Assembly (NCBI RefSeq): GCF_964204645.1
Contig: NC_134027.1
Coordinates: forward strand, 15,346,485 to 15,410,484
Origin: Tubulanus polymorphus
Lineage: Eukaryota > Animalia > Nemertea
Direction of reading: 5' to 3'
DNA: 64,000 nucleotides
Shown here: piece after piece, positions 5,747-55,251 of the stretch
Layout: every line of letters begins with the position of its first letter
How positions within the stretch are numbered: the first letter of the stretch is position 1
The notes under the pieces: generated by a model
The model's database searches: none
The model's input: the letters and a program-made list of their open reading frames with translations, nothing else
Told to the model about the DNA's origin: nothing
Program-made: the position numbers and the translations under genes

Positions 5747-5848
5747 TTTAATATCAAATTTTCTATTAAAATTGATTTTAGAAGTTATTCAAATATAAAA
5801 TATTCATTTATATATGTTATTCATATTCATATATATGAATATTATTGG

Positions 5849-12666: not shown

Positions 12667-12776
12667 TGGTTTTGTCGCCCGCGACAATTCAATATTTTGG
12701 TTTTGTCGCACGCAACAATTCAATATTCTGTTTTTGCCGTCTGCGACAATTCCTTATTTTGGTTTTATCGCCCGCG
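12667..12776 (+). repeat. Continuation of the 31-bp satellite after the HINE
   Basis: 3-4 degenerate units. Confidence 0.85.
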
Positions 12777-23300: not shown

Positions 23301-23673
23301 ATTCAAATGTACGTGATGTATTCGGTAAGCTATGTAAGCTTGTTCTTAAAAATACACTATGAATTTTCAATTTGTTCTGAACATAGTAGTTTATTTTTCG
23401 TAAATAAAATTTATATTTTAATTAAATAATTTCAAAATCTTTTCTGTGCCCTCTGCAACAGAAAGTTACTAAGGACTATTACATATTCAGATGTACGTTG
23501 ATAATTGATTTCAATCGTCCCTTCAAATAATTATATGAACATTATTTCGGAAAATGCAGGTGGCGCACAATCATAATACATACAACTCATCAAGCTGACG
23601 AGTCGTCTCCCTAACCAATGTTACAGACGGGTAAACAATCTACTCGACTCCACAGACAACTAAACGACCCGAG

Positions 23674-23794
23674 AGTAATTGGGAAAGTAGGCTTTCAGAT
23701 CAGAGGACGAGAGGACGAGACACCACTCATCACCACAAATAATTTTTTTTCTAACACTCATCACCACAAGTAATTTTTTTTCCTAATAAATGGG
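23674..23794 (+). repeat. Left terminal inverted repeat (121 bp), includes the pPolB start codon
   Basis: Exact reverse complement of 40093-40213; internal repeats GAGGACGA x2 and CACTCATCACCACAARTAATTTTTTTT x2. Confidence 0.97.
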
Positions 23795-25418
23795 GGAGAA
23801 TGAACACCAACTAGAAAACAATAATGTCAATAAAAATCAATATTATTGTCAATATTGTAAAAAATACATCGATACATCTAATAAAACACGACATGAAAAA
23901 ACTGCAAATCATATAAAAAATGTAATAGATTTTGAAACTACAGAAAATTCCAATGAAAGAAAAGAACGATTAGAAAATATGAATGTGAATGAAATAAAAT
24001 GTGAAGTTTGTGATGAATTTATAACAAAAAGGAATTATAATAGACATCTCGAAACAGAAAAACACCGTCAAAATTTGAGAAATAATGTTTTAGGAATAGA
24101 TTATTTTGATGATAAACCTCAACAAGTAAAAGAATCAACTTCAAAAACTAAATCCATTTCAAATAAACCTTACATGGAAAATGTTAGAATTTATATTGAT
24201 TCACTAGAAATAAAAGATACAATTGAAATCTTAGAAACATTACATAGTAAAATTGGTCCTGCAGCTATTATATTTAGATTTTTTAAAGGTACAACAATAG
24301 AAGATTATAGTAAATTTAATGAAATAATAGAAAAAATACTAGATTTGATAACAGATGTTGAATATCCAAAAATTAGTATCTCTGGGAAAGTAAGTTTTAT
24401 AAAGTCAGAAGAAAAAATGAATTATAATATTCAAACACACTCTGAAGAAATAATTTCAAAAACACAAATAAAAGAGAAGTTAGATAAAATATTAAATGAA
24501 TTTAAACGTCATATTGAAGAAAGATATTTTGAGGGTTCTGGCTTAACATTGAATGAAATTATATATTTAGATTTAAATGTTTATAATACAAAAAGGAATA
24601 AAACATCAAAAAGTAATAAAATGTTTAAAAATGATTCAAACTTTACAACAGAAAAGGATATGAAAGCATCAAGTTATATCAAATTACCGTTTACAACAAA
24701 AGCAGTAATAAATATTCAAAATGAAGATAATAAATGTTTTCTATGGTCAATTATTAGTTGCTTACATCCAACACAGGAAAATGTTTGTAGAATAACAGAT
24801 TATCGGAAATATGAAACATTATATAAAATTGATCAATATCCAGTAACTATAAAAATGATACCCAAAATAGAAAAAATTAATAATTTAAAAATAAATGTAT
24901 TCGAATTAATGCAATTACCAAAGACAAAAGGTGAAAATATTAAAGATTATACATTGGAAGCTTTATATTTAACAGAATATTATGATGATGAAAATGCTAT
25001 AGATTTGTTATATTACAAAAAAGATGAAAATGAACATTATATGTGGTTAAAACAAATTGATTTATTCTTTAGAACAGAAAGTGATCATCATAATAAAATT
25101 TATCTATGTAGAAAATGTTTATCCAAATTTATGACTGAGAATACATTATTAAAACATAAAGAATTATGTGATAATAAAGATTTTTGTAAATTAATAATGC
25201 CAACAGAAAAAGATTATAAATTGAAATTTACTAATCATAAATTTAAAAATATTGTTCCATTTGTAATTTATGGGGATTTTGAATCGTTGAATAAAGAATT
25301 AACTGATCAAGATAGAAAAGAAATATATAACAAAAAGCAATTATTAAAATCAATGGATAAAGGAAATGAATTAAATGAAGACACAATACAAGACCCACCA
25401 ATTATAAATACAATTTAA
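23790..25418 (+). CDS. polB: Protein-primed DNA polymerase B, N-terminal part (C2H2 zinc fingers, terminal-protein/OTU-like region, Exo I); ends at a single in-frame TAA
   Basis: CQYC..H and CEVC..H fingers, NEDNKCFLWSI...HYMW, VIYGDFES Exo I motif. Same frame as 25539-28853 (offset 1749 nt = 583 codons) and open between them. Confidence 0.9.
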   Translation: MGENEHQLENNNVNKNQYYCQYCKKYIDTSNKTRHEKTANHIKNVIDFETTENSNERKERLENMNVNEIKCEVCDEFITKRNYNRHLETEKHRQNLRNNVLGIDYFDDKPQQVKESTSKTKSISNKPYMENVRIYIDSLEIKDTIEILETLHSKIGPAAIIFRFFKGTTIEDYSKFNEIIEKILDLITDVEYPKISISGKVSFIKSEEKMNYNIQTHSEEIISKTQIKEKLDKILNEFKRHIEERYFEGSGLTLNEIIYLDLNVYNTKRNKTSKSNKMFKNDSNFTTEKDMKASSYIKLPFTTKAVINIQNEDNKCFLWSIISCLHPTQENVCRITDYRKYETLYKIDQYPVTIKMIPKIEKINNLKINVFELMQLPKTKGENIKDYTLEALYLTEYYDDENAIDLLYYKKDENEHYMWLKQIDLFFRTESDHHNKIYLCRKCLSKFMTENTLLKHKELCDNKDFCKLIMPTEKDYKLKFTNHKFKNIVPFVIYGDFESLNKELTDQDRKEIYNKKQLLKSMDKGNELNEDTIQDPPIINTI

Positions 25419-25538
25419 AAAGTTCATCAAAGAGCTGCTGCTTATGGAATTTACATCAAATCAAATTATCCCGAATTATATGAAAGTCAATATATTTCTT
25501 TTAGAGGTGAAAATGTAGTTAATGATTTTTGTGATAAA

Positions 25539-28500
25539 ATGATTGAATTAGAAAGTGATTTTACAAAATTATTAAACAAAAATAAAAGAATAGTTATGAC
25601 AAAAGAAGATGAAATTGATTTTAATTATGCAACTCATTGTTGTTATTGTGAAAAACGTTTTTATTCATTTGATAAAAGAGTTAGAGATCATGATCATTTG
25701 AATTCAAAATATCGTGGAGCTGCTCATGAAGATTGCAATTTACAAGCTAAGAAAGTTAATTTCGTACCAATATTATTTCATAATTTATCAGGCTATGATA
25801 CCCATCTATTTATAAAACAATTATCAGGAAAATTGGGCGCAATTAATCAAGAAATAGAAGAATATAATGCTATGAATGAAGCAAATGTAAGAAAATATGA
25901 TTTTAAACTATTAGCTAAAACATCTGAAAATTATATTTCATTTCAATTTGGTTGCATTAGATTTTTAGATTCTTATAGATTTCTAGCAAGTTCATTAGAT
26001 AATTTATCAAAAAGTTTAGTTGATAATGATTTTGTTATAACTCCATATTATTATCCAAATGAACAAGATTTTAAATTATTGAGATATAAAGGCGCAATTC
26101 CTTATTCATTTTATAAAACACACGATGATTTTAATGTAACAGAATTATTAAAAGATCAATTTTATGATAAATTAAAAGAGGAGTATGTGAAAGACGAAGT
26201 TTTTGATAGAACATTAAATATTTGGAACCATTTTAATATGAAAAATCATGGCGAATTAGTTGATTTATATTTAAAATCAGATGTTATGATATTAGCTGAC
26301 ATATTTGAAAAATTTAGAGAAGTTAATTTGAATCATTTTAATGTTGATCCTTGTTATTGCTACTCTAGTCCTGGTTTAACCTGGCAATGTGGTTTAAAAT
26401 ATACAAATGTAGAATTAGATTTATTAAAAGAACCAGATATGGTTTTATTATTTGAAAAATCAATTAGAGGTGGAATTAGTGGTGTTATGGGAGATAGGTA
26501 TTTTAAAGCAAATGATGAATATAAATTATTATATATTGACGCCAATAATTTATATGGTTGGGCAATGATGCAACCTCAACCATATAAAAATTTTATATTA
26601 ACAGAAGTTGAAAATGATGATAAAACTGATTGGGAAAGCGCAATTGCGAGTTTAAAAGATGAAGCACCAATTGGTTATTTCTTTGTAGTTGATTTAGAAT
26701 ATCCTGAAAATATAAAGTTTAAAACAAGAAACTTACCTTATTGCCCAGAACATTTAACTGTAGATGATAGTTATTTAAGTGAATACCAGAAGAAAGTAAA
26801 ACCGAAAGATCATGTTTTTACAGAAAAATTAATACTTACTCAAAATAATAAATACAATTATATTGTTCATTATAGAATGTTAAAATTTTATCTAAAACAA
26901 GGAATGAAATTAAAGAAAGTACATAGATATATTGAATTTAATCAATCAAAGTGGTTAGAAAAATATATAGATTTCAATACTCAACAGAGAACCATATCAA
27001 AAACAGATTTTGAAAAAGATTTCTTCAAATTAATGAACAATAGTTTTTATGGTAAAACATGTGAAAATATTAGAAATAGAAATGATATTGAATTAGTAAA
27101 TAATTCTGAACGATTGAGACACCTACAATCAAGTCCTAGACATTTAGGAAATAAAAGATTTGAAGATTATTTAACAGCAGTAAAATTAAAAAGAACGTCA
27201 ATGAAATTTAATAAACCCATTTTCATTGGTTCAACAGTTTTAGAAATATCAAAATTATTAATGTATGATTTTTATTACAATGTATTACAACCATTGTTTG
27301 GGGAAAAACATATAGAAATTCTGTACTTCGATTCTGTAACGGCCGACACCCCAATATTATTAAAATGTAATAATAAAATATTAGTAAGAAGAATTTCAGA
27401 AATAATTCCAAAACAAAATGAATGTTATATTTCATATGGAGAAAAAGAATTAATACAAATAAATGGTTTAATAGATGTTTGGACAAGAAATGGATGGAAA
27501 AAATTAAAGAATATTATTAGACATAAAACAAATAAGAAAATCTATAGAGTTAGAACTAAATTAGGGTTTGTAGATGTTACTGAAGACCACAGTTTAATTA
27601 AACAAAATGGTGATGAAATAAAACCAACTGATATAAAAATTGGAGATGAATTATTACATAAAAGATTTTTCCCAAGAATGAATCATATGTCATTTGATGA
27701 AATAATTAATAATATTTATAATATAGAACCTGAAACATTGGAAGAAAAAGAATATTTTATCAAAGGATTTTTCATGGGTGATGGTTCAGCAGGTGTGTAT
27801 AAATATGTTTGGGGTAATAAATATTGTTGGTATTTATGCAATCAAGACTTAAAATTATTAGAAAGAATTAAGAAATTCTGTGAAGAAGTTTATTCACATA
27901 AAACATTTAGAATCATGGATGTTATGAAATCATCAGCAGTTTATAGAATACTTGTAAATAATCCTAAAGATTTTGCTATAGAATATAATGATGAATTCTA
28001 TATTCATGCAATAGTGAAAAGTAATACTTCAACTAAAGAAAAAATAGTACCAGATTATATATTAAATTCAGAATATAATCTTAGAAAATGGTTCTTCATT
28101 GGGTTCTACGCAGCCGATGGTACTAAAAAATTTATAAAGGATAAAACGATAACCTTTGCACAGAAAGGAAAATGTGCAATAAGTGGGTTAAATGTGTTAT
28201 GCAGTTCATTAGGCTTCAATATGAATATTGGATTGATTAAATCTAAACCAAATTGCTTTAATTTAAGGCATGTAGAAAAAGATTTAACTGAAGAAGTTAA
28301 AGATTTATTTGAAATATATAACCCAACTGACTATGTTTATGATTTATCAACAGATGATGGAACATTCAATTCTGGGTTCCCATTAATCCAAAAAAATACG
28401 GATGCGTACATACTAAAAATCAAGACAAATGACATAACAAAAGACTTAAAAACATTAAAACATCATTTTGATTTTAGCAATTATCCTAAAGATCATGAAC

Positions 28501-28853
28501 TATTTAGCAATGATAATAAAAAGATTCCTGGTAAATTTAAAGATGAATTAGGAGGTGATGAAATGATTGAATTTGTTGGGATAAGAAGTAAAATGTATAG
28601 TTACAGAACAAAAGATCATGAAGCTAAAAAGTTAAAAGGAATAACAAAACATGTGGTTGATAAACATATAGAATTTCAAGATTATATAAAGTGTTTATAT
28701 AAATCAATTGTAATGAAACACAAGATGAATTGTTTAAGATCAGAAAATCATGAGATGTACATTAATGAAGTTGAAAAAACTAGTTTAAATCCATTTGATG
28801 ATAAAAGGCATATTTCAGATGATGGTATAAAAACATTACCTTATGGTTATTAA
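25539..28853 (+). CDS. polB: Protein-primed DNA polymerase B, C-terminal part (endonuclease VII/HNH, Exo II/III, polymerase core) containing an intein
   Basis: CCYC...VRDHDHL...RGAAHEDCNL, FHNLSGYD, FLDS, YIDANNLYGWAM (motif A), KLMNNSFYGK (motif B), YFD|TD (motif C split by intein), GKFKDE, RSKMY, KLKGI. Confidence 0.95.
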   Translation: MIELESDFTKLLNKNKRIVMTKEDEIDFNYATHCCYCEKRFYSFDKRVRDHDHLNSKYRGAAHEDCNLQAKKVNFVPILFHNLSGYDTHLFIKQLSGKLGAINQEIEEYNAMNEANVRKYDFKLLAKTSENYISFQFGCIRFLDSYRFLASSLDNLSKSLVDNDFVITPYYYPNEQDFKLLRYKGAIPYSFYKTHDDFNVTELLKDQFYDKLKEEYVKDEVFDRTLNIWNHFNMKNHGELVDLYLKSDVMILADIFEKFREVNLNHFNVDPCYCYSSPGLTWQCGLKYTNVELDLLKEPDMVLLFEKSIRGGISGVMGDRYFKANDEYKLLYIDANNLYGWAMMQPQPYKNFILTEVENDDKTDWESAIASLKDEAPIGYFFVVDLEYPENIKFKTRNLPYCPEHLTVDDSYLSEYQKKVKPKDHVFTEKLILTQNNKYNYIVHYRMLKFYLKQGMKLKKVHRYIEFNQSKWLEKYIDFNTQQRTISKTDFEKDFFKLMNNSFYGKTCENIRNRNDIELVNNSERLRHLQSSPRHLGNKRFEDYLTAVKLKRTSMKFNKPIFIGSTVLEISKLLMYDFYYNVLQPLFGEKHIEILYFDSVTADTPILLKCNNKILVRRISEIIPKQNECYISYGEKELIQINGLIDVWTRNGWKKLKNIIRHKTNKKIYRVRTKLGFVDVTEDHSLIKQNGDEIKPTDIKIGDELLHKRFFPRMNHMSFDEIINNIYNIEPETLEEKEYFIKGFFMGDGSAGVYKYVWGNKYCWYLCNQDLKLLERIKKFCEEVYSHKTFRIMDVMKSSAVYRILVNNPKDFAIEYNDEFYIHAIVKSNTSTKEKIVPDYILNSEYNLRKWFFIGFYAADGTKKFIKDKTITFAQKGKCAISGLNVLCSSLGFNMNIGLIKSKPNCFNLRHVEKDLTEEVKDLFEIYNPTDYVYDLSTDDGTFNSGFPLIQKNTDAYILKIKTNDITKDLKTLKHHFDFSNYPKDHELFSNDNKKIPGKFKDELGGDEMIEFVGIRSKMYSYRTKDHEAKKLKGITKHVVDKHIEFQDYIKCLYKSIVMKHKMNCLRSENHEMYINEVEKTSLNPFDDKRHISDDGIKTLPYGY
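27333..28397 (+). other. Intein (355 aa) with LAGLIDADG homing endonuclease at pPolB motif C
   Basis: N-extein LYFD | SVTADTPILLK (block A) ... VDVTEDHSL (block B TxxH) ... FIKGFFMGDGS and FFIGFYAADGT (LAGLIDADG blocks C/E) ... YVYDLST (block F) ... IQKN (block G) | TDAY C-extein with +1 Thr. Confidence 0.95.
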
Positions 28854-30148
28854 AATGGATCTATATCATCAAACTCGAAATCACTATTGGCTTCTTCATT
28901 TTCATTTAATTGTTCAGGTTCTTCTTCCATTCCATTTTTCTCATTTAAATAAAGTTCTATCTTGTTCCACATTTCATCTCGCTCTCTTTGTTTCTTTTTG
29001 TTTGTTAATTCATCAAATGGAATTATAATATCTAGGTTTAAATAATTTACAATCTTATTTAAAAAGAATTCATAATTTATTGAATCTGTTATTCTATTTT
29101 CCAAATGATACATTAATATTTGTTTAAATATTTTTTTTATATTTTCCATATCTTCTTCTGTTAATTTAGGTTTTTCATAATAATCGTTAAATAATAAATA
29201 TAAATACATTTTCTTTTGTTTTGTGTTAAATGTTGGTGGAATAATTGTTTTTATAATATCTTTTTTAGTTATTTCACCATTTTTATTTTCTATTATTTTT
29301 ATTTTTTCAAGCCATTGCATATATTCTGGTGTATGATCTTCTATAGAAAATATTTTAAAAATTTCATCTAGATAATTTAATTTTGGTTCTATGAGAAAAT
29401 CTCTATTTTTTTCTTCACCCCATAAATTCTTTTGCCATCCACATTCAACACAAAATAACACAGTACCTTCTTGCCTTAAGGTCGCATAACTACATTGTGG
29501 GCATTTTTGTTTATAATTTCTTGGTAATAGATCTTCATTAAGCTCTTGGTATTTTCTTACGTTTTCTTTATGTTTTATTGTTCTATTATGTAGATTTGAA
29601 TTACTTGTTGTAATAATCAATTTACAATATTTACAATAATATGTTTTTCTTGTTAATTCATTATATTGTTTTTCTAACTTTTCAACTGTTTCTTTATTAT
29701 CTGGTAACGTTTTCTCATATTTTATTTTTTCTAATAAATTATTTTTTCTTTCATTGAATTCAGTTTCAAATTTATTAGAAATTTTATCTATATGTGCTTT
29801 ACGAAATTGATGATTCTCCCAATCTTCTATATTTTCAGGGCTATATTTTACTTGACAAGGCTCACAGAAATGATCTTTTATATTATCCTTATCATAGAAT
29901 AAGAAAGGTCTTTTCCAAATAACTTCAGGTTCAACTTCAGCAGAATTACTATCAACATTAGCTGTTGCGCCATTAATTCTACACTTCTCTGAATGTTTTT
30001 TAACATAATTTCTTGAGAATAATTTATTACATTTTGGACAGTTTATTTTAGGGGGTTTATAATTTTCATCATGTTTTTTCATATGTCGAGCCATATTACT
30101 TTTTCTTAGAAGTTCACCACAAATTTCGCATGCTATCTTCTCATCCAT
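28850..30148 (-). CDS. Multi-zinc-finger protein with C-terminal VLTF3 (poxvirus A2-like late transcription factor)-like domain
   Basis: N-terminal C2H2/C2HC fingers, then CPQC-x13-CVECG ribbon, then PKLTEE...IFKQI...SINYEFFLNKIVNYL...KKKQRERDEMWNKI, matching the remembered NCLDV VLTF3 pattern F.QI...NFLSYSYVL.K...L...K....W.KI. Confidence 0.65.
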   Translation of the reverse strand: MDEKIACEICGELLRKSNMARHMKKHDENYKPPKINCPKCNKLFSRNYVKKHSEKCRINGATANVDSNSAEVEPEVIWKRPFLFYDKDNIKDHFCEPCQVKYSPENIEDWENHQFRKAHIDKISNKFETEFNERKNNLLEKIKYEKTLPDNKETVEKLEKQYNELTRKTYYCKYCKLIITTSNSNLHNRTIKHKENVRKYQELNEDLLPRNYKQKCPQCSYATLRQEGTVLFCVECGWQKNLWGEEKNRDFLIEPKLNYLDEIFKIFSIEDHTPEYMQWLEKIKIIENKNGEITKKDIIKTIIPPTFNTKQKKMYLYLLFNDYYEKPKLTEEDMENIKKIFKQILMYHLENRITDSINYEFFLNKIVNYLNLDIIIPFDELTNKKKQRERDEMWNKIELYLNEKNGMEEEPEQLNENEEANSDFEFDDIDPF

Positions 30149-30217
30149 TTATTAAGGAAAAATTTTATTAAAATTAATTTTTAGTGATGAGCGGTAATTT
30201 TTTTTATGTTATAAATA

Positions 30218-30979
30218 ATGGTAGAATTAAAAGAATACAGAATATTTGTTGATTCTAGAAAACTTACAAATTATAAATCTCATAATTTACTAGTACAATT
30301 AGATAGAGAATTTAAGAATTGTGTAGATTTAAAATTAGTTAATATAAGTTTATGTAATTCTTTTTACAATGTATCGGATAAGTCTATTGAACATAGAATC
30401 TTTTTAATTAATATTAGAAATAAAAATGAATGGGTCTATATATATTTAAAACCAGGGTTATATAATTTAGATACATTAGCACAAGAAATTAATAGAAAAG
30501 CCTGGCACAAATTAGGTAGTAGTTCTGGGTTTAGTATTAGATTTTTAAAAAGTGAGAGTTCTGATAGAATAAAGATAAGGTTGTCTAATAGTGAAAAACA
30601 TAAAATTATGGTAAAAAAACCTATAGCTAAACTGTTAGGAATTCTTCCAGATAGATCTTTTACAAATATTGACGCTACTACACCAAACTTAATACCTTAC
30701 ACACATTTTTATATTTATTGCAATTTAATCGATCCTACAAAAACATTCGAAGCAACTAAAGATATAACTTGTAATTCTGGTTTACTAAACATTTTACCAT
30801 TGAAGAATGTTAAAGAATTTGGAACGCAAATAAATTATAATTTAACAGAATGTGATTTCAAACCATGCATTCCTAGTTTTAATAATTTTAGATTAGAAAT
30901 AAGAAATCATAATGGATACTTAATTGATTTGAATAACTTTCCTGTAATTTATGAATTAGTTATAAGATGTAAAGAGTAA
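30218..30979 (+). CDS. Putative minor capsid (penton, single jelly-roll) protein
   Basis: IFVDSR, L..ISL.NSFYNVS, LKPGLYNL, FYIYCNLID, LEIRNHNGYLIDLNN.PV.YEL motifs typical of Polinton minor capsid proteins. Confidence 0.75.
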   Translation: MVELKEYRIFVDSRKLTNYKSHNLLVQLDREFKNCVDLKLVNISLCNSFYNVSDKSIEHRIFLINIRNKNEWVYIYLKPGLYNLDTLAQEINRKAWHKLGSSSGFSIRFLKSESSDRIKIRLSNSEKHKIMVKKPIAKLLGILPDRSFTNIDATTPNLIPYTHFYIYCNLIDPTKTFEATKDITCNSGLLNILPLKNVKEFGTQINYNLTECDFKPCIPSFNNFRLEIRNHNGYLIDLNNFPVIYELVIRCKE

Positions 30980-30996
30980 TTTTTCTCACTATATAA

Positions 30997-31338
30997 ATGA
31001 ATATAACTGTTGGACCGAGTATATGTTTTGGGTTTGATTTTAAACATGGTAAAGAAATGAGAATTAAACTAAATGATGTAATTACTGATATAAAAAGTAA
31101 ATCATTTAACAATGCATCAATGATTGATAAAGAAAAGTATAATATAGAAAAAGTAATTGATTTAATTAAATCACCTTTAGAATATTATGGATTAAATGAA
31201 GATGGAATTATTGAAGATATTAAAAACATATTATCCAAAATATATGATAATCATAAAACTAGTAATGAAATAAATGTTGAATTAATCATAAATAAGTTAA
31301 CTAAATATTTTGAAGATAGTAATTTTTTTGATAAATAA
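30997..31338 (+). CDS. Hypothetical Polinton protein (113 aa)
   Basis: ORF in the packed gene array with TAAATG start. Confidence 0.7.
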   Translation: MNITVGPSICFGFDFKHGKEMRIKLNDVITDIKSKSFNNASMIDKEKYNIEKVIDLIKSPLEYYGLNEDGIIEDIKNILSKIYDNHKTSNEINVELIINKLTKYFEDSNFFDK

Positions 31339-31560
31339 ATGAGTGATAATAAGTGGATAATAACTGGATTATATAATGGCGCATTACTATCAGTTGGAAC
31401 TGTTGGTTATTCAATGGTATTAAAAAAAGTATTCAAAATGGGAAGTGTTAATGTTGATAGATTTGATATAAATGATATTTTGAAATTAACGTTAGCAGTT
31501 ACTTTATCTAATTTAACTATTGATTATTTGGAAAAACAAAAATATATTCCTCCCATATAA
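31339..31560 (+). CDS. Small hydrophobic protein (73 aa)
   Basis: Two hydrophobic segments; TAAATG start abuts the previous stop. Confidence 0.7.
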   Translation: MSDNKWIITGLYNGALLSVGTVGYSMVLKKVFKMGSVNVDRFDINDILKLTLAVTLSNLTIDYLEKQKYIPPI

Positions 31561-31584
31561 ATGCATAATTTTTTTGCTAAATAA

Positions 31585-32007
31585 ATGGCTTCTGCAATTA
31601 TAACTATTATAGGATCGGCAATTGTTAACGCTTTAGCATTTACTGGTGGTGGTTATTTATTTAAACATATTGATAAAAATAGTTCATTAGGAGAACAAAG
31701 AAGACATAACTTAGCGTTAGAGAAATACAATAAAGCAGCGGAAGAATATAGAGAAAAGAGGCAAAACTATATGGATTACATCAATAAAGAATTATATGAT
31801 CAGAAGATTTCACATAGAGATTTTCAATCAGTTGATGATGCAATGAGTTTATATAACGCAGTAACAAATAAAGAAAAATTACATCTATACAAACCTAAAT
31901 TATCAGATTATTATACCCCAAGTAAAGAACAACAGAAATATGAAATAATATGGATTTTAGGTGGAACTGTTATTGTTATATTTGTTGCTTATAAGTTTAC
32001 TAATTAG
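31585..32007 (+). CDS. Membrane protein (140 aa; N- and C-terminal hydrophobic helices, central coiled coil)
   Basis: MASAIITIIGSAIVNALAFTGGGYLF ... IIWILGGTVIVIFVAY. Confidence 0.75.
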   Translation: MASAIITIIGSAIVNALAFTGGGYLFKHIDKNSSLGEQRRHNLALEKYNKAAEEYREKRQNYMDYINKELYDQKISHRDFQSVDDAMSLYNAVTNKEKLHLYKPKLSDYYTPSKEQQKYEIIWILGGTVIVIFVAYKFTN

Positions 32008-32026
32008 TAATTTTTATTCTAAATAA

Positions 32027-32461
32027 ATGGAAGATAAAGTTGATAATATTGATATTATTCCTCATGATATAAATAAAACTAAATTAAAAACATATTTAGA
32101 AAAACAAATATTAGAATTTGAAAGTGACTTAAAGATAAAAAAGAAAAAATATTTAAAAAGTAAAATTATATATTATTTGATTATAAGTGGTTCGGTTACA
32201 ATTAGTTCTGTAATAACATTTTTAGCAATATTCAGTCCATTAACACCTTTAGCTATATCAATTGGTGTATTAGGATTAAGTTCAAGTGTTTTAACTGGTA
32301 TAAGTTCAAAATTAAATATAAAAAGTAATAAAGAAAAAATTAAAACTAATATAAAAGAAATTAATAAATTAAAGAACACACTAGATTATATAATAAGTTT
32401 AAATGGTCATATAACAGTTGAAGAACAAGATAAATTATTAAAAGAATTAATAAATTATTAA
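32027..32461 (+). CDS. Two-TM coiled-coil protein (144 aa)
   Basis: Hydrophobic hairpin IIYYLIISGSVTISSVITFLAIF / LAISIGVLGLSSSVLTGI flanked by Lys-rich helices. Confidence 0.75.
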   Translation: MEDKVDNIDIIPHDINKTKLKTYLEKQILEFESDLKIKKKKYLKSKIIYYLIISGSVTISSVITFLAIFSPLTPLAISIGVLGLSSSVLTGISSKLNIKSNKEKIKTNIKEINKLKNTLDYIISLNGHITVEEQDKLLKELINY

Positions 32462-32477
32462 TTTTTTAATTATATAA

Positions 32478-33866
32478 ATGGTAGATAGTTTTCCAAAAGC
32501 TTTCCGATATAATAAATCAATTAAATATAATATTCCAGCAATAGATTTTAATAAAGATATTACATATAGAAATGAAGTTTTAGATTCATTAATTGATTTA
32601 TATATTTATGTTACTGAAACTAATAATTTTAATGCAAAGATGGAAAATATATTTCATATATATTTAATTAATTTTAAAAAATTGAAAGATGAAAAACAAT
32701 GGTTATTAAAATCTAATATGAAGTATTGGCAGAATCAATTAAATTTTGCTGTTTATTGTGCAACAACAGGATGTGGAATTAGTTGGAATGATCATTTGAA
32801 TAATTCTAAATATAAACTAATTCAAAGTTTATTTAGATTTCATACATACTTTCAAATCAGAATGATATTAAATGAATTAGAGTGCGCTTTACCAGGATCT
32901 AGGTATTTCAAAGAATTAGATAATAATATTAATTTATCAAAGTTTTATAAGATTTGTAATGAATTTAATATAGATATAAATAATTCTGATTTTAGAACAA
33001 AAATTGGAACAATAAGATCACTTCCATGCCCTAAAAAGATTGCAGAATATTGTGCACTTCCCATACCATCTAATAGTTTTTATAATATCTATAATAATAA
33101 ATTAGGTTATGGTAAAATAGAAACAAAAGATTTAGAAACATTAAATTTCAATAAATTACCGAAATTTTATGATCATTTAAAACAAGAAAACAATAATGGT
33201 TGGGTATATTTTATTTTAGAGAATAGTGAAGGTTTTACTAAATCAGGTATAGAAAGAATAAATCAATCTATTAGAACTTATTTGATTTGTATTTTAGGTG
33301 CGCAAGTTGAAACAAGATCACCGATAATTGGAAATTTGAATACATCATTCGATACACAAAAACAATTTAAAGTTTTATTTGAAGATTCAATTCATAATGA
33401 TAAAAATAGATCTATTCCAGAAAACATTATAAGATATCAAAATTATTTAGATAAATCTCATGTAAGACTTAATTATTGTATAGGCCCTAATCTATTAATT
33501 ATTTCTAATGATTTAGTATTGAAGATGGGAAATATAATTGGTTATAATAATCTAATTAAAACTGCAACAATAAATAATTCATTTGGATTGAATGATATAA
33601 ATAAAAAGATTATTACTGCTCCAAAATTAATGGAGGGTGAAAAAAATAAAAAACACATTCAATCAACAGAAACTAAAACTAATAATATTAAATTGGTTAA
33701 TGATTCCAAAATAAAAGATTACAATACATCAGAAAATATAAAAACTGATAATATTCAACATGATATAATTAAACTAAATGATGATAATAAATCCCATGAA
33801 AATACTAAATTAGCTATAACTTGTATAGGAATTGTAATCGGAGGAATATTATATTTTAAATTTTAA
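32478..33866 (+). CDS. Conserved Polinton protein of unknown function with C-terminal TM anchor (462 aa)
   Basis: Long ORF, WQNQLNFAVYCATTGCGISW motif, C-terminal LAITCIGIVIGGILYF; homologous relic at 1-2684. Confidence 0.8.
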   Translation: MVDSFPKAFRYNKSIKYNIPAIDFNKDITYRNEVLDSLIDLYIYVTETNNFNAKMENIFHIYLINFKKLKDEKQWLLKSNMKYWQNQLNFAVYCATTGCGISWNDHLNNSKYKLIQSLFRFHTYFQIRMILNELECALPGSRYFKELDNNINLSKFYKICNEFNIDINNSDFRTKIGTIRSLPCPKKIAEYCALPIPSNSFYNIYNNKLGYGKIETKDLETLNFNKLPKFYDHLKQENNNGWVYFILENSEGFTKSGIERINQSIRTYLICILGAQVETRSPIIGNLNTSFDTQKQFKVLFEDSIHNDKNRSIPENIIRYQNYLDKSHVRLNYCIGPNLLIISNDLVLKMGNIIGYNNLIKTATINNSFGLNDINKKIITAPKLMEGEKNKKHIQSTETKTNNIKLVNDSKIKDYNTSENIKTDNIQHDIIKLNDDNKSHENTKLAITCIGIVIGGILYFKF

Positions 33867-33882
33867 TTTTTTTATTATGTAA

Positions 33883-35346
33883 ATGGATGTAGAAGGTGGA
33901 GAAGATTATGAAATGGGAGAAATGGGAAATAATAATGAAGGATATATTGATGATGAACCACAACCTGATTTTAATGAAACTAATATTGATAATGATGATG
34001 AATCAGCATATAATTCTAATTTAGCAGATAGTGGTTCTAAAGGTCAATCAACAGATGAATTTGATAGAAGAACTAGATCGAGAATAAATCCTGAAAATGA
34101 AAATCCAGATTTAGTAAAACAAAATTTAGAATATAATGAATATATTTATAATTTCAAACCTATATTTGAAAAATCTGGATATAATATCAATACCAGAGGC
34201 GCTAGACTTTTAGTACAAGAATTAAAGTTTTTAGATGGTGAATATTATTATCGTTTGAAAGATGATTATTATATTGATATCTCTTATAAAAAACAAGAAA
34301 AAATATTAGCAGAATCAACTTTGCTTAAGTTAGACCTATCTAGAATTAAAAGAATAAGAAATAGTAATGAACCAGAAGATGTAACACAAGAAGAAATTAT
34401 TAAAAATGAAAGAGTATTTAAACAAAGAATTAATGAATTATTTGAAACAATCGATAATAATTTAGAAACAGAAACAACTTCTGAACAGAATATAACTTCC
34501 AAAACTAGTAAACTTAAATCAAATAAAGTTCAAATTGAAAAACTTTTACCGAATGGGTTACTTGATGCAACAGATCAAGAATTAGAAGATTTAGATATAT
34601 TTTCTGATAAAGCAATTAGAGAAATTATTAGTATAAGACTTGCATCTGATAAAATTGCGCATGATAAAAGTATAAGAGATTTTAAAATTAGAACTTTAGA
34701 AAAAGAAAGAACTGATAAAAATAAAGAAATAGAACAATTAAAATTAGATAGAGATAATAAAGTTATTGAAGAAATTGAATTTAAAAACAGAAATGCATAT
34801 TTAGAAAAAGAAATTGATGATTTAGAATATAACATAGAATTACAAAAAGAAGAAATTAAATTATTATTAAAATCATATGATTATAATATAAATAGATTAA
34901 AAGTTATTTTTAAAGATTTGTTGATAAAACCAAATTCTGAAATATCATTGAAAGACAGAATAAAATTATTATTTAAACTAGAAGGTATAACAATTCTTTC
35001 AATTCTAACAACTCTAACTATGGTATTTACAACAATAGGTTTAGCAATATCAAATGCTTTGAAATCTACTCCTACTCCAAATAAACCAGATAAACCTCCA
35101 GGTAATAATTCTATACAAGATAAAGTTAAAGATGGTTTAAAGAAATTAGCAAAATATTTATGGGAACTATCTAAAAAATCTGCTGCAGCTTTACCAGGAG
35201 TTATTGCTTCAATTGTTGGTTTTATATTGAAATCTGCAGGAAACATTATTAACTTTGCTGCTGAACATATTATTTTATTTTTAATTACGGTTGTAAGTGC
35301 TATTATTTTTGGGTTAGTGAATATGATATCAAAAAATATCAAGTAA
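33883..35346 (+). CDS. Acidic/coiled-coil protein with C-terminal TM segments (487 aa)
   Basis: Acidic N-terminus, heptad-rich middle, three hydrophobic segments at the C-terminus; homologous relic at 2700-4125. Confidence 0.8.
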   Translation: MDVEGGEDYEMGEMGNNNEGYIDDEPQPDFNETNIDNDDESAYNSNLADSGSKGQSTDEFDRRTRSRINPENENPDLVKQNLEYNEYIYNFKPIFEKSGYNINTRGARLLVQELKFLDGEYYYRLKDDYYIDISYKKQEKILAESTLLKLDLSRIKRIRNSNEPEDVTQEEIIKNERVFKQRINELFETIDNNLETETTSEQNITSKTSKLKSNKVQIEKLLPNGLLDATDQELEDLDIFSDKAIREIISIRLASDKIAHDKSIRDFKIRTLEKERTDKNKEIEQLKLDRDNKVIEEIEFKNRNAYLEKEIDDLEYNIELQKEEIKLLLKSYDYNINRLKVIFKDLLIKPNSEISLKDRIKLLFKLEGITILSILTTLTMVFTTIGLAISNALKSTPTPNKPDKPPGNNSIQDKVKDGLKKLAKYLWELSKKSAAALPGVIASIVGFILKSAGNIINFAAEHIILFLITVVSAIIFGLVNMISKNIK

Positions 35347-35387
35347 ACCATGATAAAAAATAAATAATTAATTTTTTTGTTAAATAA

Positions 35388-36635
35388 ATGAGTGGGAGTT
35401 ATATAAGTCCTATAAAGATTTCTAGAATATCTAACGCTATTAAAGCAGAAAGATCACATCATATAATTACTCATAACCCTTCAAATATTAATCCCGATGA
35501 AACTTTATATGTTAGAATTCCTAGATTAACACAAAATACTTTTTATGTTCCAAATAGTGTTTATTTATCAGCTGATATAAAAGTAATCGGTAATAATAAT
35601 AATTATGTTGTTGATAATGTTGGAAGATATTTGATTAAAAAGTTAACAATAAAGATTGGTCCGGAAACAGTTTTCTCATTAGATGATTATAATTTATTTA
35701 TGCATTATAAAGATTTATGGTTAACTAAAGAAAATAGAAATAATATGATATTTCAAGGAATTCAATCAGAAAACCAAAATAAATTAAGATCAGAAGCTAA
35801 TAGCGCAATATTAACAAATGATGTAGATAAATTGATAAAAAGTATATATGGAAGCAAATATAAAATTCCATTAGACTTTGAATTGATAAATAATAATGCA
35901 CCTTTATATAAATACGCAATTCAAGAAGATATTATATTTGAGATAACATTTGCTCCTGTAAATGAAATTGTATTATCTAGCGTTAATAAAGATATGAGTT
36001 ATAAATTATCGAATATATGTTTAGAATATGACACAGTAACTGATGAAAATATTTCAAGTATAATTCAAACTCAATACAATCAAGGGTTTTCATTATTATA
36101 TGATTATATTGATAAATTTAAAACTGTAACTATTAATGCAAATGATGAAATAATTAATGAGAATATTAACTTCCCAAGAAGATCTATTAAAGGTATATTA
36201 ATATTTTTTACCATTGGAACGTATACTAATGGTGCAATAAATGTTGATAATTATTATAATCCTGAAATAACAAAAGTAGAAATAACTATCGAAGGAATAG
36301 CAAATAAAATATTTTGTCAAGGAATGAGAATGATAGATCAATGGGTAGAAATTAAAAAACATTTTATGAATGAAAAAGTAAAATCATTTGAAAATTGTAA
36401 CATTAATCAAATTGATTATTATACCGGCAATAAATATGCATTATGGTTAGATTTTAGAACAACTGAAGATAACTTATTACATGGTTCTGGGAAAAAATTA
36501 CAAAATACAAAAGATGGGATCCAATTATTCATGAAAAAGAATAAAGGAATCAAAAATTTTAAAATGCACATTTATATTATATCTGATGCACAATTAAATA
36601 TTGTAAATTCACAATTAGATAGTATTCAATATTAG
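35388..36635 (+). CDS. Putative major capsid protein (double jelly-roll, 415 aa)
   Basis: Size and beta-rich pattern (ITHNPSNI...LYVRIP.L....VP.SVYLSADI, YKIPLDF, LSNICLEYD, NINFPRRSIKGIL, ALWLDFRT, MHIYIISDA) as in invertebrate Polinton MCPs; adjacent to integrase and ATPase. Confidence 0.75.
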   Translation: MSGSYISPIKISRISNAIKAERSHHIITHNPSNINPDETLYVRIPRLTQNTFYVPNSVYLSADIKVIGNNNNYVVDNVGRYLIKKLTIKIGPETVFSLDDYNLFMHYKDLWLTKENRNNMIFQGIQSENQNKLRSEANSAILTNDVDKLIKSIYGSKYKIPLDFELINNNAPLYKYAIQEDIIFEITFAPVNEIVLSSVNKDMSYKLSNICLEYDTVTDENISSIIQTQYNQGFSLLYDYIDKFKTVTINANDEIINENINFPRRSIKGILIFFTIGTYTNGAINVDNYYNPEITKVEITIEGIANKIFCQGMRMIDQWVEIKKHFMNEKVKSFENCNINQIDYYTGNKYALWLDFRTTEDNLLHGSGKKLQNTKDGIQLFMKKNKGIKNFKMHIYIISDAQLNIVNSQLDSIQY

Positions 36636-36665
36636 AAATATAAAGTTAAAATTAAGGATATATAA

Positions 36666-37793
36666 ATGGGTGGTAAAAAAACTCCTAATACTAAAGAACA
36701 ATATTTAAGAAATTTATATTACAACCCTGAGAGTTCGGTTGCTTATTCTTCTACCAAAAATATATGGAGTAAAGTAAAACAAGATAAATTAGATAAGATA
36801 ATCCCACAAAATGTAGTTAAATATAAAGATATAAATGAATTTATGTTAGAACAACCAACATATACAACACATAAAAAAATTGTTAGAAAATATAAAACTC
36901 GTAAAACTATGGTAAGTTATGTAGATCAACAGTGGCAAGGAGATTTAATTGATATGAAAAATGTTAAGAAAGCTAATGATGATTATTGGTGGTTATTGAA
37001 TATAATTGATATTTTTAGTCGTTATGTATGGAGTTTCCCACTTTATAGAAAAGATGCTGTACAAACATCAAATGTTTTAAGAAAATTTCTTTCAGGTGGT
37101 AAACTAAAACCAGAAAAAATACAATTTGATGATGGAAAAGAATTTGATAATTCATTAGTTCATGGACTTTTAGATTTTCATAATATTAAATATTTTTCGA
37201 CAAAATCGGATAAAAAAGCAGCAGTTGTTGAACGATTTAATAGAACATTGAGAACAAGAATGTCAAAATATTTCACAGCAAATAATACTTATAAATGGAT
37301 TGATGTTTTACCAAAATTTATAGAAGGATATAATAATTCTTATCATTCTTCTATTGGAATGAAACCTATTGATGCTAGAAAACCTGAAAATGCTGAAATT
37401 GTTTGGAATAATTTATATGGAGCATTTCTTGTTGTTGATTTTGGTGAACCTAAATTTAAAGTTGGTCAAAATGTTAGAATTTCTAAGTATAAAAAGATAT
37501 TTGACAAAGGATACGATCGAAATTTTACTAGAGAAATATACAAAATAAAAAAGGTAATAACAACAAAACCATATGTCTATAAATTAGAAGATTTAGATGG
37601 TGAAGAAGTTGATGGCTACTTTTACGAAGAAGAATTAAGTTTAACTACTGAAAATCTAGAACAAGAATATAAAATTGAAAAAGTACTAAAAACAAAAACT
37701 GTTAAAAGAAAAAAATATTCTTTAGTAAAATGGGTTGGATGGCCAGATAAATTCAATGAATGGATATTATCAAGTAAAATTAAAAATATATAA
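36666..37793 (+). CDS. int: Retroviral-like (rve) DDE integrase with C-terminal chromodomain
   Basis: WQGDLIDM, IDIFSRY, IQFDDGKEF, AVVERFNRTLR, YNNSYHSSIGMKP; chromodomain YKIEKVL...LVKWVGWPDKFNEWI. Confidence 0.95.
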   Translation: MGGKKTPNTKEQYLRNLYYNPESSVAYSSTKNIWSKVKQDKLDKIIPQNVVKYKDINEFMLEQPTYTTHKKIVRKYKTRKTMVSYVDQQWQGDLIDMKNVKKANDDYWWLLNIIDIFSRYVWSFPLYRKDAVQTSNVLRKFLSGGKLKPEKIQFDDGKEFDNSLVHGLLDFHNIKYFSTKSDKKAAVVERFNRTLRTRMSKYFTANNTYKWIDVLPKFIEGYNNSYHSSIGMKPIDARKPENAEIVWNNLYGAFLVVDFGEPKFKVGQNVRISKYKKIFDKGYDRNFTREIYKIKKVITTKPYVYKLEDLDGEEVDGYFYEEELSLTTENLEQEYKIEKVLKTKTVKRKKYSLVKWVGWPDKFNEWILSSKIKNI

Positions 37794-38360
37794 ATGAATA
37801 AGGAATTATTTATATTTGAGCCTCATAATATGTTAATTTCTGGTGTAACAAATTGTGGAAAAACTTATTTTATATTAAATTTATTAGAAACTGTTTATGA
37901 AAACTATTTTGATAATATAGTATTATTTTGTCCAACATATGAATTTAATCAAACTTATGATAGAAATATTACTAGAAATAATAAATTTATTATATTAAAT
38001 CCTAAAACAGTAAAAGAAAATTTAGATAATTGTATAAAAATAGCAATTGATATTTATAAAGGATCAAATACATTATTTATCATAGATGATTGTGCAAATT
38101 TACATGATTCTAAAATTAGAGAAAGCGAGTTATGTTATTTAGCTTTCTCTGGAAGACATTTTGGGATAACAACTTGGGTTTTAAATCAAAAATATAATTC
38201 AATTGTTAAAGATTTTAGAGAAAACATTAGATTTCTAGTTTTATTCTACAATAAAGATAGAAAATCGATGAAAAATGCACTTGAGGAAAATGATATTATT
38301 CCACATGATTTACATAATGAATATATGGATAAGTTGAAAAATATTAAAAGATCAAAATGA
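37794..38360 (+). CDS. A32/FtsK-like genome packaging ATPase (possibly ending at a premature TGA; frame stays open to 38402)
   Basis: Walker A GVTNCGKT, Walker B LFIIDD, GRHFGITTWVLNQ arginine-finger/motif. Confidence 0.92.
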   Translation: MNKELFIFEPHNMLISGVTNCGKTYFILNLLETVYENYFDNIVLFCPTYEFNQTYDRNITRNNKFIILNPKTVKENLDNCIKIAIDIYKGSNTLFIIDDCANLHDSKIRESELCYLAFSGRHFGITTWVLNQKYNSIVKDFRENIRFLVLFYNKDRKSMKNALEENDIIPHDLHNEYMDKLKNIKRSK

Positions 38361-38402
38361 CTATTTAGATTACAACACCCATTTAAATATGAATTTATTT
38401 AA

Positions 38403-38660
38403 ATTCAACTAGCTTGTTAATCTAGTTGAATTCTAGTTATTGGTAGTTGTAACAAAAATCAACTAGATTTAACAATATTTTAACTAGCTTGTCAATCTAG
38501 TCTAATTCTAGTTACATTCTAGTTGAATTCTAGTTGTTAGTAGTTGAAACAAAAATCAACTAGATTTAACAAGAAATAAACAAAAACAACAATATTTCAA
38601 CTAGCTTGTTAATCTAGTTGAATTCTAGTTACATTCTAGTTGAATTCTAGTTGCAACAAC
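38403..38660. repeat. Intergenic CTAG-rich repeat/palindrome array inside the Polinton
   Basis: 15 CTAG cores counted by eye; three copies of AACTAGCTTGTYAATCTAGT and runs of TTCTAGTT(GAA/ACA) at 11-bp spacing. Confidence 0.85.
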
Positions 38661-38684
38661 ACAACTAATTTATTTGTTTTATAA

Positions 38685-39290
38685 ATGGGAGGTGAAAAGA
38701 AAATAAAATCTAAAAATGGTGATGTTCCAATTGAAAAAACTTTAGATGATTTAGGAATAACAGAAACAAAATTAACTCCAGATGATGGTGCTTTAAATAA
38801 TGTTACAACAAATAATAATTATGAATATTATCTTTATTGTAAACATCAATTAGAAATATTAATAGCATCTGGAAAATGTAAAAATTTTGTCGGTAAAAAT
38901 TTAACTTATAATGAATTAGATACAATGAAATCAGATGAAATTATTAGATTATTTAAGATTTATGAATCCGCGAGAACAGCTAGAATTAATGACGCGATAT
39001 CAGAAAATGTAGTAAAAGGTTATAGTAAATTATGTAATTATATACTACCAATTGAAAATGAAAATAGATTATATTACGATTTAAAAAATGATTATTTAGT
39101 TATGACTGAATTAAATAAATGGATTGGATATTTATCATTTCAATTAGGTGGATTTATGACATTATTATCAACCGGGGTTATAACATTTTCAAATATTGAA
39201 AGTAAAAATATTTCTATAATAAATGAGCGAGGTGAAAGAAGTGAAGGAATTAACTGTGAAGAAAAAACCGAGAACTCAGAAACAAATTGA
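38685..39290 (+). CDS. Hypothetical Polinton protein with hydrophobic C-terminal segment (201 aa)
   Basis: ORF with TAAATG start; WIGYLSFQLGGFMTLLSTGVITF. Confidence 0.75.
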   Translation: MGGEKKIKSKNGDVPIEKTLDDLGITETKLTPDDGALNNVTTNNNYEYYLYCKHQLEILIASGKCKNFVGKNLTYNELDTMKSDEIIRLFKIYESARTARINDAISENVVKGYSKLCNYILPIENENRLYYDLKNDYLVMTELNKWIGYLSFQLGGFMTLLSTGVITFSNIESKNISIINERGERSEGINCEEKTENSETN

Positions 39291-39591
39291 ATGGTCTCGA
39301 CAATTAGGAATTAAATCACAAGAATATAAAAAAGCTGTAAAAGAAAAAATAAGTAATAAAAATGTTAATAAAAATGGTGAAAATATTGTTATTTCTACTC
39401 CTTCTGATAGTAGAATATTTGATAAATATCTATATTTTACAGTTGGATTTGTAATTGTATTCATTTTGATTGGGTGTAATTGGTATAAGAAATCAAATAA
39501 AATTCATGATAGTAATAATTCTGAAACAACTGCTATCAAAAATGAAAATACTTCTGAAATTCCAAAATTGATAATAAAAAAAATGGATTAA
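39223..39591 (+). CDS. Basic single-TM protein (122 aa)
   Basis: KKKPRTQKQIEWSRQLG basic motif; TM YLYFTVGFVIVFILIGCNWY; TAAATG start overlapping the previous ORF. Confidence 0.75.
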   Translation: MSEVKEVKELTVKKKPRTQKQIEWSRQLGIKSQEYKKAVKEKISNKNVNKNGENIVISTPSDSRIFDKYLYFTVGFVIVFILIGCNWYKKSNKIHDSNNSETTAIKNENTSEIPKLIIKKMD

Positions 39592-39770
39592 TATTTTAGA
39601 AAAAAGCAAAAAAATAATTTTTTTAAATTAATTGAATATCTCACTACTTTTGTCTATCACTGTGTGGGTGCTGTTTATGGCACCATCTATGTGGAGCAAT
39701 TAAATTGTCCAGATAAGTCATTTCGGATTCTAGATATTCATTATTTCTATTAATTTATTTTTTTTTAAAT

Positions 39771-40097
39771 TTAATCAACAATTTCTAAATCATGATGACC
39801 GTCTTCATTTTTCCCATGATATATTATTTTAAATCCTACTAAATCTTTCAATTCCTCCGTACTCAATGAAACCCATTTATCGGGTAAAAACACTTTAAAT
39901 TCTCGCGATGTACTAACATTACAGTAGCTTAAATTAGCTGATACTTTCTCTCCATATTTAGTTTTTATCTTTTCTAATTTCAATATTTTATGTTCAATTT
40001 CTTTTGTAACATCAACTAACTTTTTTATTTCAAATTGTTTTTTTGCTGGTTTTATTCTGTTATTTATTGTTGCTAAGAATGCTTTTCTATCTCCCAT
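39771..40097 (-). CDS. Small basic protein starting inside the right TIR; possibly OB-fold ssDNA-binding
   Basis: ATG within the TIR; TKYGEKV...FKVFLP..W...IIYHG beta-rich pattern; function is a guess. Confidence 0.6.
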   Translation of the reverse strand: MGDRKAFLATINNRIKPAKKQFEIKKLVDVTKEIEHKILKLEKIKTKYGEKVSANLSYCNVSTSREFKVFLPDKWVSLSTEELKDLVGFKIIYHGKNEDGHHDLEIVD

Positions 40098-40213
40098 TTA
40101 TTAGGAAAAAAAATTACTTGTGGTGATGAGTGTTAGAAAAAAAATTATTTGTGGTGATGAGTGGTGTCTCGTCCTCTCGTCCTCTGATCTGAAAGCCTAC
40201 TTTCCCAATTACT
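40093..40213 (-). repeat. Right terminal inverted repeat (121 bp)
   Basis: Exact reverse complement of 23674-23794; followed by TSD CCCGAG. Confidence 0.97.
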
Positions 40214-40387
40214 CCCGAGTAACCCCCAATTTGACTATAACTATAAATTATGTTATGTTAAACCGCATTGGTGTTACTTGACACATCAAATGCGTATCCC
40301 GTATTGATATATTTCTTTTATCCACTTTTTAAATTATGAATAGCACGCCTGCTCAGAAAACCCGTTATCGCTGCTTTGCAGCTATAT

Positions 40388-47315: not shown

Positions 47316-55251
<7,936 letters not shown>

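Follow-up and report, generated by a model that had tools for sequence, protein, structure and literature searches.

It has long been asked how Polintons replicate in animals and whether they ever behave there as viruses. A cysteine protease of the Ulp1/adenain type belongs to their core genes (PMC5718144, PMC11161782), and the late transcription factor VLTF3 has already been published in Polintons (PMC11131425, PMC8502044). Polinton-like viruses (PLVs) occur in the occlusion bodies of entomopoxviruses (PMC11296320). Late promoters shared with a helper are an accepted sign of virophage dependence and are present in mavirus and Sputnik (PMC6428243). Here, we analyze a Polinton of 16.5 kb in a stretch of 64,000 nucleotides from Tubulanus polymorphus (contig NC_134027.1; the whole stretch is called the window below), in which it spans positions 23674-40213. 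Perfect terminal inverted repeats (TIRs) of 121 bp and a 6-bp target-site duplication (TSD), CCCGAG, bound the element, and with the DNA polymerase pPolB, an rve integrase, an A32 ATPase and a double-jelly-roll capsid it has the hallmarks of a Polinton. Nearly all of its genes begin at TAAATG behind a tract of T, and this signal is, by sequence comparison, a conserved trait of its lineage. We consider it probable (roughly 0.6) that the TAAATG lineage would be transcribed by the RNA polymerase of a pox-type helper, probably aided by a VLTF3 of its own.

The TAAATG start signal

TAAATG is found at 14 of the 15 true starts of the element, from which the internal ATG after the pPolB stop is excluded, and at 5% of its other ATGs (binomial p 1e-17), which bears out the TAAATG starts listed in an initial annotation of the window. 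At the fifteenth start, TAAAT lies three bases earlier. All 15 starts use TAA alone and never TAG or TGA. A TAA-TTTTT block is positioned upstream, with T at -14 in 15/15 and at -13 in 13/15 starts, and a run of five T precedes 11 of the 15 starts compared with one of 32 non-start TAAATG sites (p 8e-7). The start motif is also embedded in the TIR and in the 69-bp divergent spacer. In the published description, the late promoters of vaccinia consist of TAAAT(G) and, at the tenth base upstream, a conserved T among other Ts (PMC11980589); this T corresponds to position -13 of the element numbering. Hence, the element starts show the published poxvirus late pattern, in which TAAAT overlaps the start codon and a T lies about 10 nt upstream. 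At TAAAT, transcription both begins and slips, which yields a poly(A) leader (PMC4542343, PMC6211774), and late genes of African swine fever virus have TATA instead (PMC7163114).

A second motif of 8 bp, CTCATCAC, occurs at 23726, 23757, 30191(-), 40130(-) and 40161(-), upstream of pPolB, VLTF3 and the terminal 108-aa open reading frame (ORF) only. It is possibly an early or host-factor site and a lead on the first expression of a nuclear provirus.

Distribution of the signal among relatives

Relatives were metagenome loci with capsid homologues (the best 80 of 181), and only homologous genes with aligned N-termini were scored, which gave 73 loci with a scorable start and left 7 of the 80 unscored. 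The trait is bimodal: 20 loci have TAAATG at 53 of 57 starts and the other 53 loci at 1 of 129. The positive and negative groups are defined by TAAATG itself and hence three independent checks were used, namely a capsid tree, hold-out ORFs and base composition. The capsid tree (64 rows, quick IQ-TREE, SH-aLRT support only, midpoint root; 17 loci with a capsid ORF below 300 aa were dropped) places all 17 TAAATG rows among the 22 on one side of a branch with support 100 and leaves the remaining 42 without any. The window capsid lies inside a 15-row clade (support 99) with 14 positives. Five negatives within the 22-row side imply several losses or gains. Hold-out ORFs, which have no homologue in the window, start at TAAATG in 15 of 15 cases in positive loci vs. 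2 of 116 in negative loci, some of these 116 probably not being genes. As to composition, positive loci at a GC content of 0.33-0.44 have TAAATG at 19 of 20 starts, and AT-rich negative sister loci (GC up to 0.37) at 0 of 21, with A at -3 instead. The T-tract is retained as well, with T at -12 in 46/53 starts of relatives vs. 35/123 control sites. Overall, TAAATG persists, also at accessory genes, in relatives whose capsid identity ranges over 34-76% and whose GC content ranges over 20-44%. In control loci, TAAATG was found at 13 of 35 starts in two entomopoxvirus loci and at 15 of 112 in other loci of the nucleocytoplasmic large DNA virus (NCLDV) type. The initial annotation had proposed to look for VLTF3, TAAATG and the intein in one clade: TAAATG is confined to one side of the capsid tree, but the intein and VLTF3 do not track it strictly.

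The TAAATG-positive element in locus L077 encodes an intein-free pPolB of the Alpha type (8189-12253(-)), so the promoter trait crosses polymerase types. Two TAAATG-positive relatives encode a deoxynucleoside kinase (L003:10343-10981(-), L007:2898-3377(-)), which would be useful for cytoplasmic replication. TAAATG-negative loci of the same capsid family include two with a large superfamily-1-type helicase ORF that possibly replaces pPolB (L017:9970-13596(-), L041:8797-11034(-)).

The VLTF3-like factor

Scanned alone, the C-terminal 226 aa of the ORF at 28850-30148 match Pox_VLTF3 (PF04947) with 26.4 bits at a cut-off of 25, which upholds the VLTF3-like factor of the initial annotation. The zinc ribbon and the helical domain of VLTF3 are present and the structure matches in BFVD are VLTF3s; a sequence search of the PDB gave no match. 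Among 1.84 billion representatives, the search with VLTF3 gave four matches: P0241 matches the gene end in L003 at 96% identity, P0242 and P0243 look like further Polinton-type relatives, and P0244 is 60-62% identical to a named entomopoxvirus VLTF-3. When 61 VLTF3-type proteins were scored with a profile, five of the pox type reached 25-39 bits, and the best of 54 others of the NCLDV type reached 22 bits. Foldseek with the predicted VLTF3 model places poxvirus VLTF3 at ranks 1, 2, and 4. In a tree of 36 rows, from which 29 of the 54 NCLDV rows had been removed as redundant, Polinton and pox rows are grouped (SH-aLRT 92, unstarred). The element protein is thus a true VLTF3, and sequence and predicted fold lend moderate support to a leaning toward poxviruses. 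By its distribution among the loci, VLTF3 is not a strict partner of TAAATG. In the TAAATG-negative locus L049, a Bcl-2 homologue is encoded together with a weak VLTF3-like protein that differs from that of the element (2448-2858(+), 6543-7049(+)).

The intein in pPolB

The intein of 355 aa is inserted in YxD|TDS of pPolB motif C, begins with Ser, ends with Asn before a Thr at +1 and has the LAGLIDADG motifs of a predicted homing endonuclease. The best 120 of 817 matches comprise 9 pPolBs (42-65% identity, including the Alpha-type P0125) and 111 RNA-primed family B polymerases, of which one is named, that of a mimivirid. In a FastTree of 105 rows (16 matches with unclear ends were dropped), the nine pPolB rows, the window's included, form one side of a branch with support 100. 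The intein is absent from the TAAATG-positive loci L008 and L077 and from six TAAATG-negative loci, and three intein-bearing pPolBs are nearer to the TAAATG-negative L020 than to the window element; on these grounds it was rejected as a marker of either the TAAATG lineage or the helper. In DNA reads of the host species, 10 joint reads and 83 loose ends skip the intein, which is therefore present in some copies and absent from others within one animal species. Such polymorphism among copies in one animal genome is a natural system for intein homing, of smaller and separate interest. The three independent links to cytoplasmic large DNA viruses that were claimed initially do not amount to three such links to one helper, since the intein forms a Polinton-wide clade, is missing from two TAAATG relatives and some host copies and has its nearest outside kin in non-pox polymerases. 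From these comparisons, it is best read as the record of an old exchange with large DNA viruses that later spread among Polintons, with no link to a present helper.

Gene content, copies and surroundings

The element has about 24% GC compared with about 38% in the flanks, and 94% of it is coding, with 16 ORFs (Table 1). Capsid, ATPase, integrase and pPolB genes are present as initially annotated, according to Pfam matches and the capsid fold. The predicted fold of the capsid protein (415 aa) is a double jelly roll with pLDDT 88.7 and matches PBCV-1 Vp54 with E 1.7e-18; mavirus major capsid protein (MCP) follows at rank 44 of the fold search, behind PBCV-1 and iridovirus. In Pfam, pPolB matches PF03175 (E 1.4e-19), the integrase PF00665 (E 1e-8) plus a chromodomain, and the ATPase Pox_A32. 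The 253-aa penton candidate belongs to a conserved family with a weak DUF5901 match, and its PDB sequence search was empty. No RNA polymerase subunit was recognized by Pfam among the 16 element ORFs, in line with the initial annotation. Likewise, Pfam recognized no peptidase family, Ulp1/adenain included, among these 16 and 54 selected ORFs of relatives; by Pfam the element would be a protease-less variant, and an unrecognized protease might be among its unassigned ORFs. Scans of viral contigs with the capsid, the capsid alignment and the integrase found no relatives, and nothing usable came from PHROGs for 11 ORFs, from Rfam for 18 kb or from the ESM Atlas for the 462-aa ORF.

Table 1. Coordinates of the Polinton features in the window
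Feature	Position	Strand	Remark
Left TSD CCCGAG	23668..23673		
Left TIR, 121 bp perfect; contains duplicated T-tract and TAAATG start of pPolB	23674..23794	+	
pPolB N-terminal part, 542 aa, zinc fingers, premature in-frame stop at end	23790..25418	+	Homologue P0121 uninterrupted
Rest of pPolB, in frame with the N-terminal part; exonuclease and polymerase motifs, Beta-type; the called ORF of 1104 aa begins at 25539	25419..28853	+	
Intein, 355 aa (Ser...Asn|Thr), predicted LAGLIDADG homing endonuclease, in pPolB motif C	27333..28397	+	
VLTF3-like late transcription factor, 432 aa; N-terminal zinc fingers; C-terminal zinc ribbon and helical domain at 28853-29530	28850..30148	-	
Divergent promoter region, 69 bp; T-tract and TAAAT on both strands	30149..30217		
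Probable minor capsid (penton), 253 aa; sole non-TAAATG start (TAAAT 3 nt further upstream)	30218..30979	+	Weak DUF5901; conserved family
ORF 113 aa, function unassigned, TAAATG start	30997..31338	+	
ORF 73 aa, conserved in relatives; TAAATG start abutting previous stop	31339..31560	+	
ORF 140 aa, two hydrophobic segments, conserved, TAAATG start	31585..32007	+	
ORF 144 aa, two transmembrane segments, weakly SLATT-like, TAAATG start	32027..32461	+	
ORF 462 aa, conserved, C-terminal hydrophobic segment, TAAATG start	32478..33866	+	
ORF 487 aa, conserved, three C-terminal hydrophobic segments, TAAATG start	33883..35346	+	
Major capsid protein, double jelly roll, TAAATG start	35388..36635	+	
rve integrase and chromodomain, D-D-E motifs present, TAAATG start	36666..37793	+	
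A32-type packaging ATPase, 188 aa (premature stop); TAAATG start abutting previous stop	37794..38360	+	
ORF 201 aa, conserved, TAAATG start	38685..39290	+	
ORF 122 aa, one hydrophobic segment, TAAATG start	39223..39591	+	
ORF 108 aa, begins at TAAATG within right TIR	39771..40097	-	
Right TIR	40093..40213	-	
Right TSD CCCGAG	40214..40219		

The pPolB frame is broken by an in-frame stop at 25416-25418 (the homologue P0121 has 1693 aa uninterrupted), and the ATPase ends at 188 aa vs. 203-204 aa in five relatives. The two nonsense changes imply a decay of about 0.2%, at which about 0.5 differences between the TIRs are expected; two stops and identical TIRs therefore fit an element that is young but defective. 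Hence, the initial description as complete and recently inserted stands for the boundaries, perfect TIRs and TSD, which are exact, and is compatible with the data as regards age, but the copy is not intact. As a germline copy of a multi-copy Polinton, it is young yet already defective and could be mobilized in trans only. The two stops may be private mutations, shared changes or assembly errors; they are absent among the 40 best-supported differences of each read set (1242 and 76 further rows lie beyond these).

Copies were surveyed by mapping 1.93 Gb of raw DNA reads from run X7, which is labelled with the same species, on a 19-kb stretch. Small shares in another organism and in a marine metagenome yielded short pieces and were set aside. 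A total of 60,310 reads mapped, 4,414 of them at an identity of at least 99%, 29,978 at 95-99% and 25,918 at 90-95%. At the left terminus, 519 reads continue into flanks that disagree. Read identities and disagreeing flanks together indicate a family that was inserted many times at differing ages. Summed read depth in element bins is about 145-890 and gives no calibrated copy number, as the flank is repeated too.

Behind the ATPase gene, a non-coding spacer at 38400-38670 contains imperfect short direct repeats. Fragments of a second, related Polinton lie at 1-5800, with 56-86% protein identity to the 462-aa, 487-aa and pPolB ORFs; it is rearranged and interrupted at 740-2134 by the reverse transcriptase of a long interspersed element (LINE). 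By its CIDE-N exon, LINE reverse transcriptase and satellites, the surrounding genome is of animal type. The exon belongs to a host gene (49761-50096), a 31-bp tandem repeat forms long arrays at 9480-15400 and 41680-44500 together with 155-bp repeats, and an intact host transposon integrase of 401 aa lies at 59746-60951(-) (rva_4).

Proposed mechanism and alternatives

Integration at many sites with a 6-bp TSD is observed, and an rve integrase is encoded. From the integrated state, host RNA polymerase II (Pol II) would produce little useful mRNA, because TAAATG sets a pyrimidine at -3 and the genes lie 0-70 bp apart. For ordinary scanning, a T at -3 is unfavorable. Element DNA might get into the cytoplasmic factory of the helper via an incoming particle or a mobilized provirus, and the helper polymerase would start there within AAA of TAAAT and slip, which would give a poly(A) leader before the AUG. 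Such a leader would place A at -3. The VLTF3 of the element may supplement or redirect the late initiation complex of the helper. As the gene content suggests, pPolB would start at the TIRs to replicate the linear genome, which the ATPase would then pack into the jelly-roll capsid. The intein would be a passenger, likely homing between Polinton polymerases. By analogy, the element may protect its host.

The initial annotation had called the element a parasite of a pox/NCLDV-type virus. This idea is supported by the promoter with its positioned T-tract, by its being a lineage trait and by the pox-leaning VLTF3, but not by three independent links, and the copy is defective. Several observations weigh against transcription by a pox-type helper. 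Neither a helper nor a transcript nor a particle has been observed, and the route from a nuclear provirus to a cytoplasmic polymerase is left without explanation. Every gene class, including pPolB and VLTF3 itself, stands behind the same TAAATG signal. The 13 TAAATG starts of the entomopoxvirus loci have no sharp T-tract (46-61% T at -14 to -12), and the promoter match is therefore to vaccinia as published and not to the entomopoxvirus control. A sixth pox-type VLTF3 scores 13.6 bits only, a Polinton-only profile ranks a non-pox VLTF3 second (38.2 bits), the branches of the VLTF3 tree are long, and the alignment used for folding held five pox-type sequences among nine rows, which may bias the fold search. 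VLTF3 is seen in a single TAAATG-positive locus, L003, as an N-terminal fragment, most positive loci being too short, and is not seen in 12.4 kb of the TAAATG-positive L077; the weak VLTF3-like gene of the TAAATG-negative L049 (E 6e-4) differs from that of the window. Finally, the nearest outside kin of the intein are in non-pox, RNA-primed polymerases.

The main alternative is an autonomous nuclear virus that captured VLTF3 and pox-like promoters and needs no helper today, with VLTF3 as a TFIIB-like adaptor that steers host Pol II and TATA-binding protein. We regard this as unlikely, although nuclear entry is required of the element for integration and CTCATCAC, whose sites lie ahead of pPolB, VLTF3 and the terminal ORF alone, could give these genes an early host-driven start. 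A cited paper deals, by its title, with the targeting of vaccinia late promoters by TATA-binding protein. The VLTF3 model resembles TFIIB/cyclin folds (yeast TFIIB with Z 6.9, rmsd 3.0 and 94 aligned), a middling match that is tied with other helical bundles. However, without polymerase slippage, initiation within TAAAT would leave a leader of 0-3 nt, and slippage is documented for the polymerases of poxviruses and of yeast virus-like elements (PMC6211774). Furthermore, L077 has TAAATG at 7/7 starts but no VLTF3 in 12.4 kb, and the VLTF3 gene itself is behind TAAATG.

It is less probable again, and decidedly so, that an ordinary Polinton uses TAAATG as a translational signal, i.e., a stop immediately ahead of the start codon that serves termination-reinitiation or acts as a guard in the scanning of polycistronic Pol II mRNA, or has it as a by-product of AT-richness. 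Genes are tightly packed (94% coding), the element has 24% GC, and 2 of the 14 TAAATG are true stop-start junctions. However, the other 12 abut no upstream ORF, both TIR-terminal genes and the divergent pairs carry TAAATG, TAA alone is used, and the T-tract upstream is fixed. Neither AT content nor stop-start coupling was accepted as the cause of TAAATG, given its retention at 44% GC, 0/21 in AT-rich sisters and the 12/14 starts outside stop-start junctions.

Lower still in probability, the lineage might descend from a poxvirus parasite whose copies now spread within the genome only and whose promoters are vestigial. The two premature stops of the window copy and the fragmented relative at 1-5800 would fit such a relic, as would reads that are mostly 90-99% identical, so that copies span a range of ages; against it, the motif is kept across relatives over the range of capsid identity and GC given above and in accessory genes too, and the window copy has an intact capsid ORF and identical TIRs. 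Least probable of all, and only marginally credible, is a helper other than a poxvirus, namely some different cytoplasmic element whose polymerase is pox-related (a member of Pokkesviricetes or a linear-plasmid-like element), for although yeast cytoplasmic linear elements have a TAAAN initiator with slippage (PMC6211774), egoviruses widen the pox neighborhood (10.1101/2024.03.23.586382) and the placement of VLTF3 is loose, TAAATG fused to the start codon with an upstream T is the poxvirus post-replicative pattern in the accounts consulted, and the best VLTF3 matches are Poxviridae.

Beyond transcription by a pox-type helper, we advance a wider reading tentatively and at less than even odds. 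A widespread lineage of animal Polintons might be endogenous 'poxvirus virophages' that are integrated in the germline, wired throughout for pox-late expression and equipped with their own VLTF3 to capture the machinery. Their promoters would then mark undescribed pox-like viruses of invertebrates, and the elements might serve as a heritable defence.

Comparison with known systems

Polintons/Mavericks (Polintoviricetes; Beta 'adintoviruses', PMC8502044) share with the window element TIRs, a 6-bp TSD, pPolB, rve, the A32 ATPase, the double-jelly-roll capsid and a probable penton, and also location in the animal germline and many copies. The window element differs from them in that no adenain/Ulp1 is recognized, a pox-type promoter stands at nearly all genes, and VLTF3 and a pPolB intein are present. 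No earlier report of either pox-type promoters in animal Polintons or an intein in their pPolB was found in the literature searched, most subscription journals lying outside it. VLTF3 in an animal Polinton is shared with coral polintoviruses, where it was attributed to an exchange of genes with giant viruses (PMC11131425, which cites Krupovic and Koonin 2016); that source contains no promoter analysis (0 occurrences of 'promoter') and makes no link to poxviruses.

The PLVs of entomopoxviruses (AHEV_PLV1/2, CBEV_PLV1, Ca_PLV1; PMC11296320) are likewise of the Polinton type and proposed parasites of poxviruses. As reported there, they are linked to poxviruses by co-sequencing from occlusion bodies, encode a protease and have no detected rve integrase. 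In contrast, the link for the window element is by promoters and VLTF3 in an rve-integrated lineage with no known helper. The main text of PMC11296320 contains none of the terms 'promoter', 'motif', 'TAAAT', 'VLTF' or 'intein'.

If the proposed transcription by a pox-type helper holds, the element has in common with mavirus and Sputnik (Lavidaviridae; PMC6428243) a late promoter shared with a large cytoplasmic helper, and with mavirus also pPolB and rve. It differs from both in a capsid that is non-virophage by fold rank, in the lack of a recognized protease, in its animal host and in a promoter of pox rather than mimivirid type, and its dependence on a helper is putative. Membership in Lavidaviridae was rejected, as mavirus MCP ranks only 44th in the fold search and no protease is recognized. 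The element is thus probably a Polinton working like a poxvirus virophage outside Lavidaviridae. A promoter that can be read from sequence separates one animal Polinton lineage that is likely pox-dependent from its ordinary sisters and, if true, the integrated-virophage lifestyle of the mavirus type would extend from protists to animals and poxviruses.

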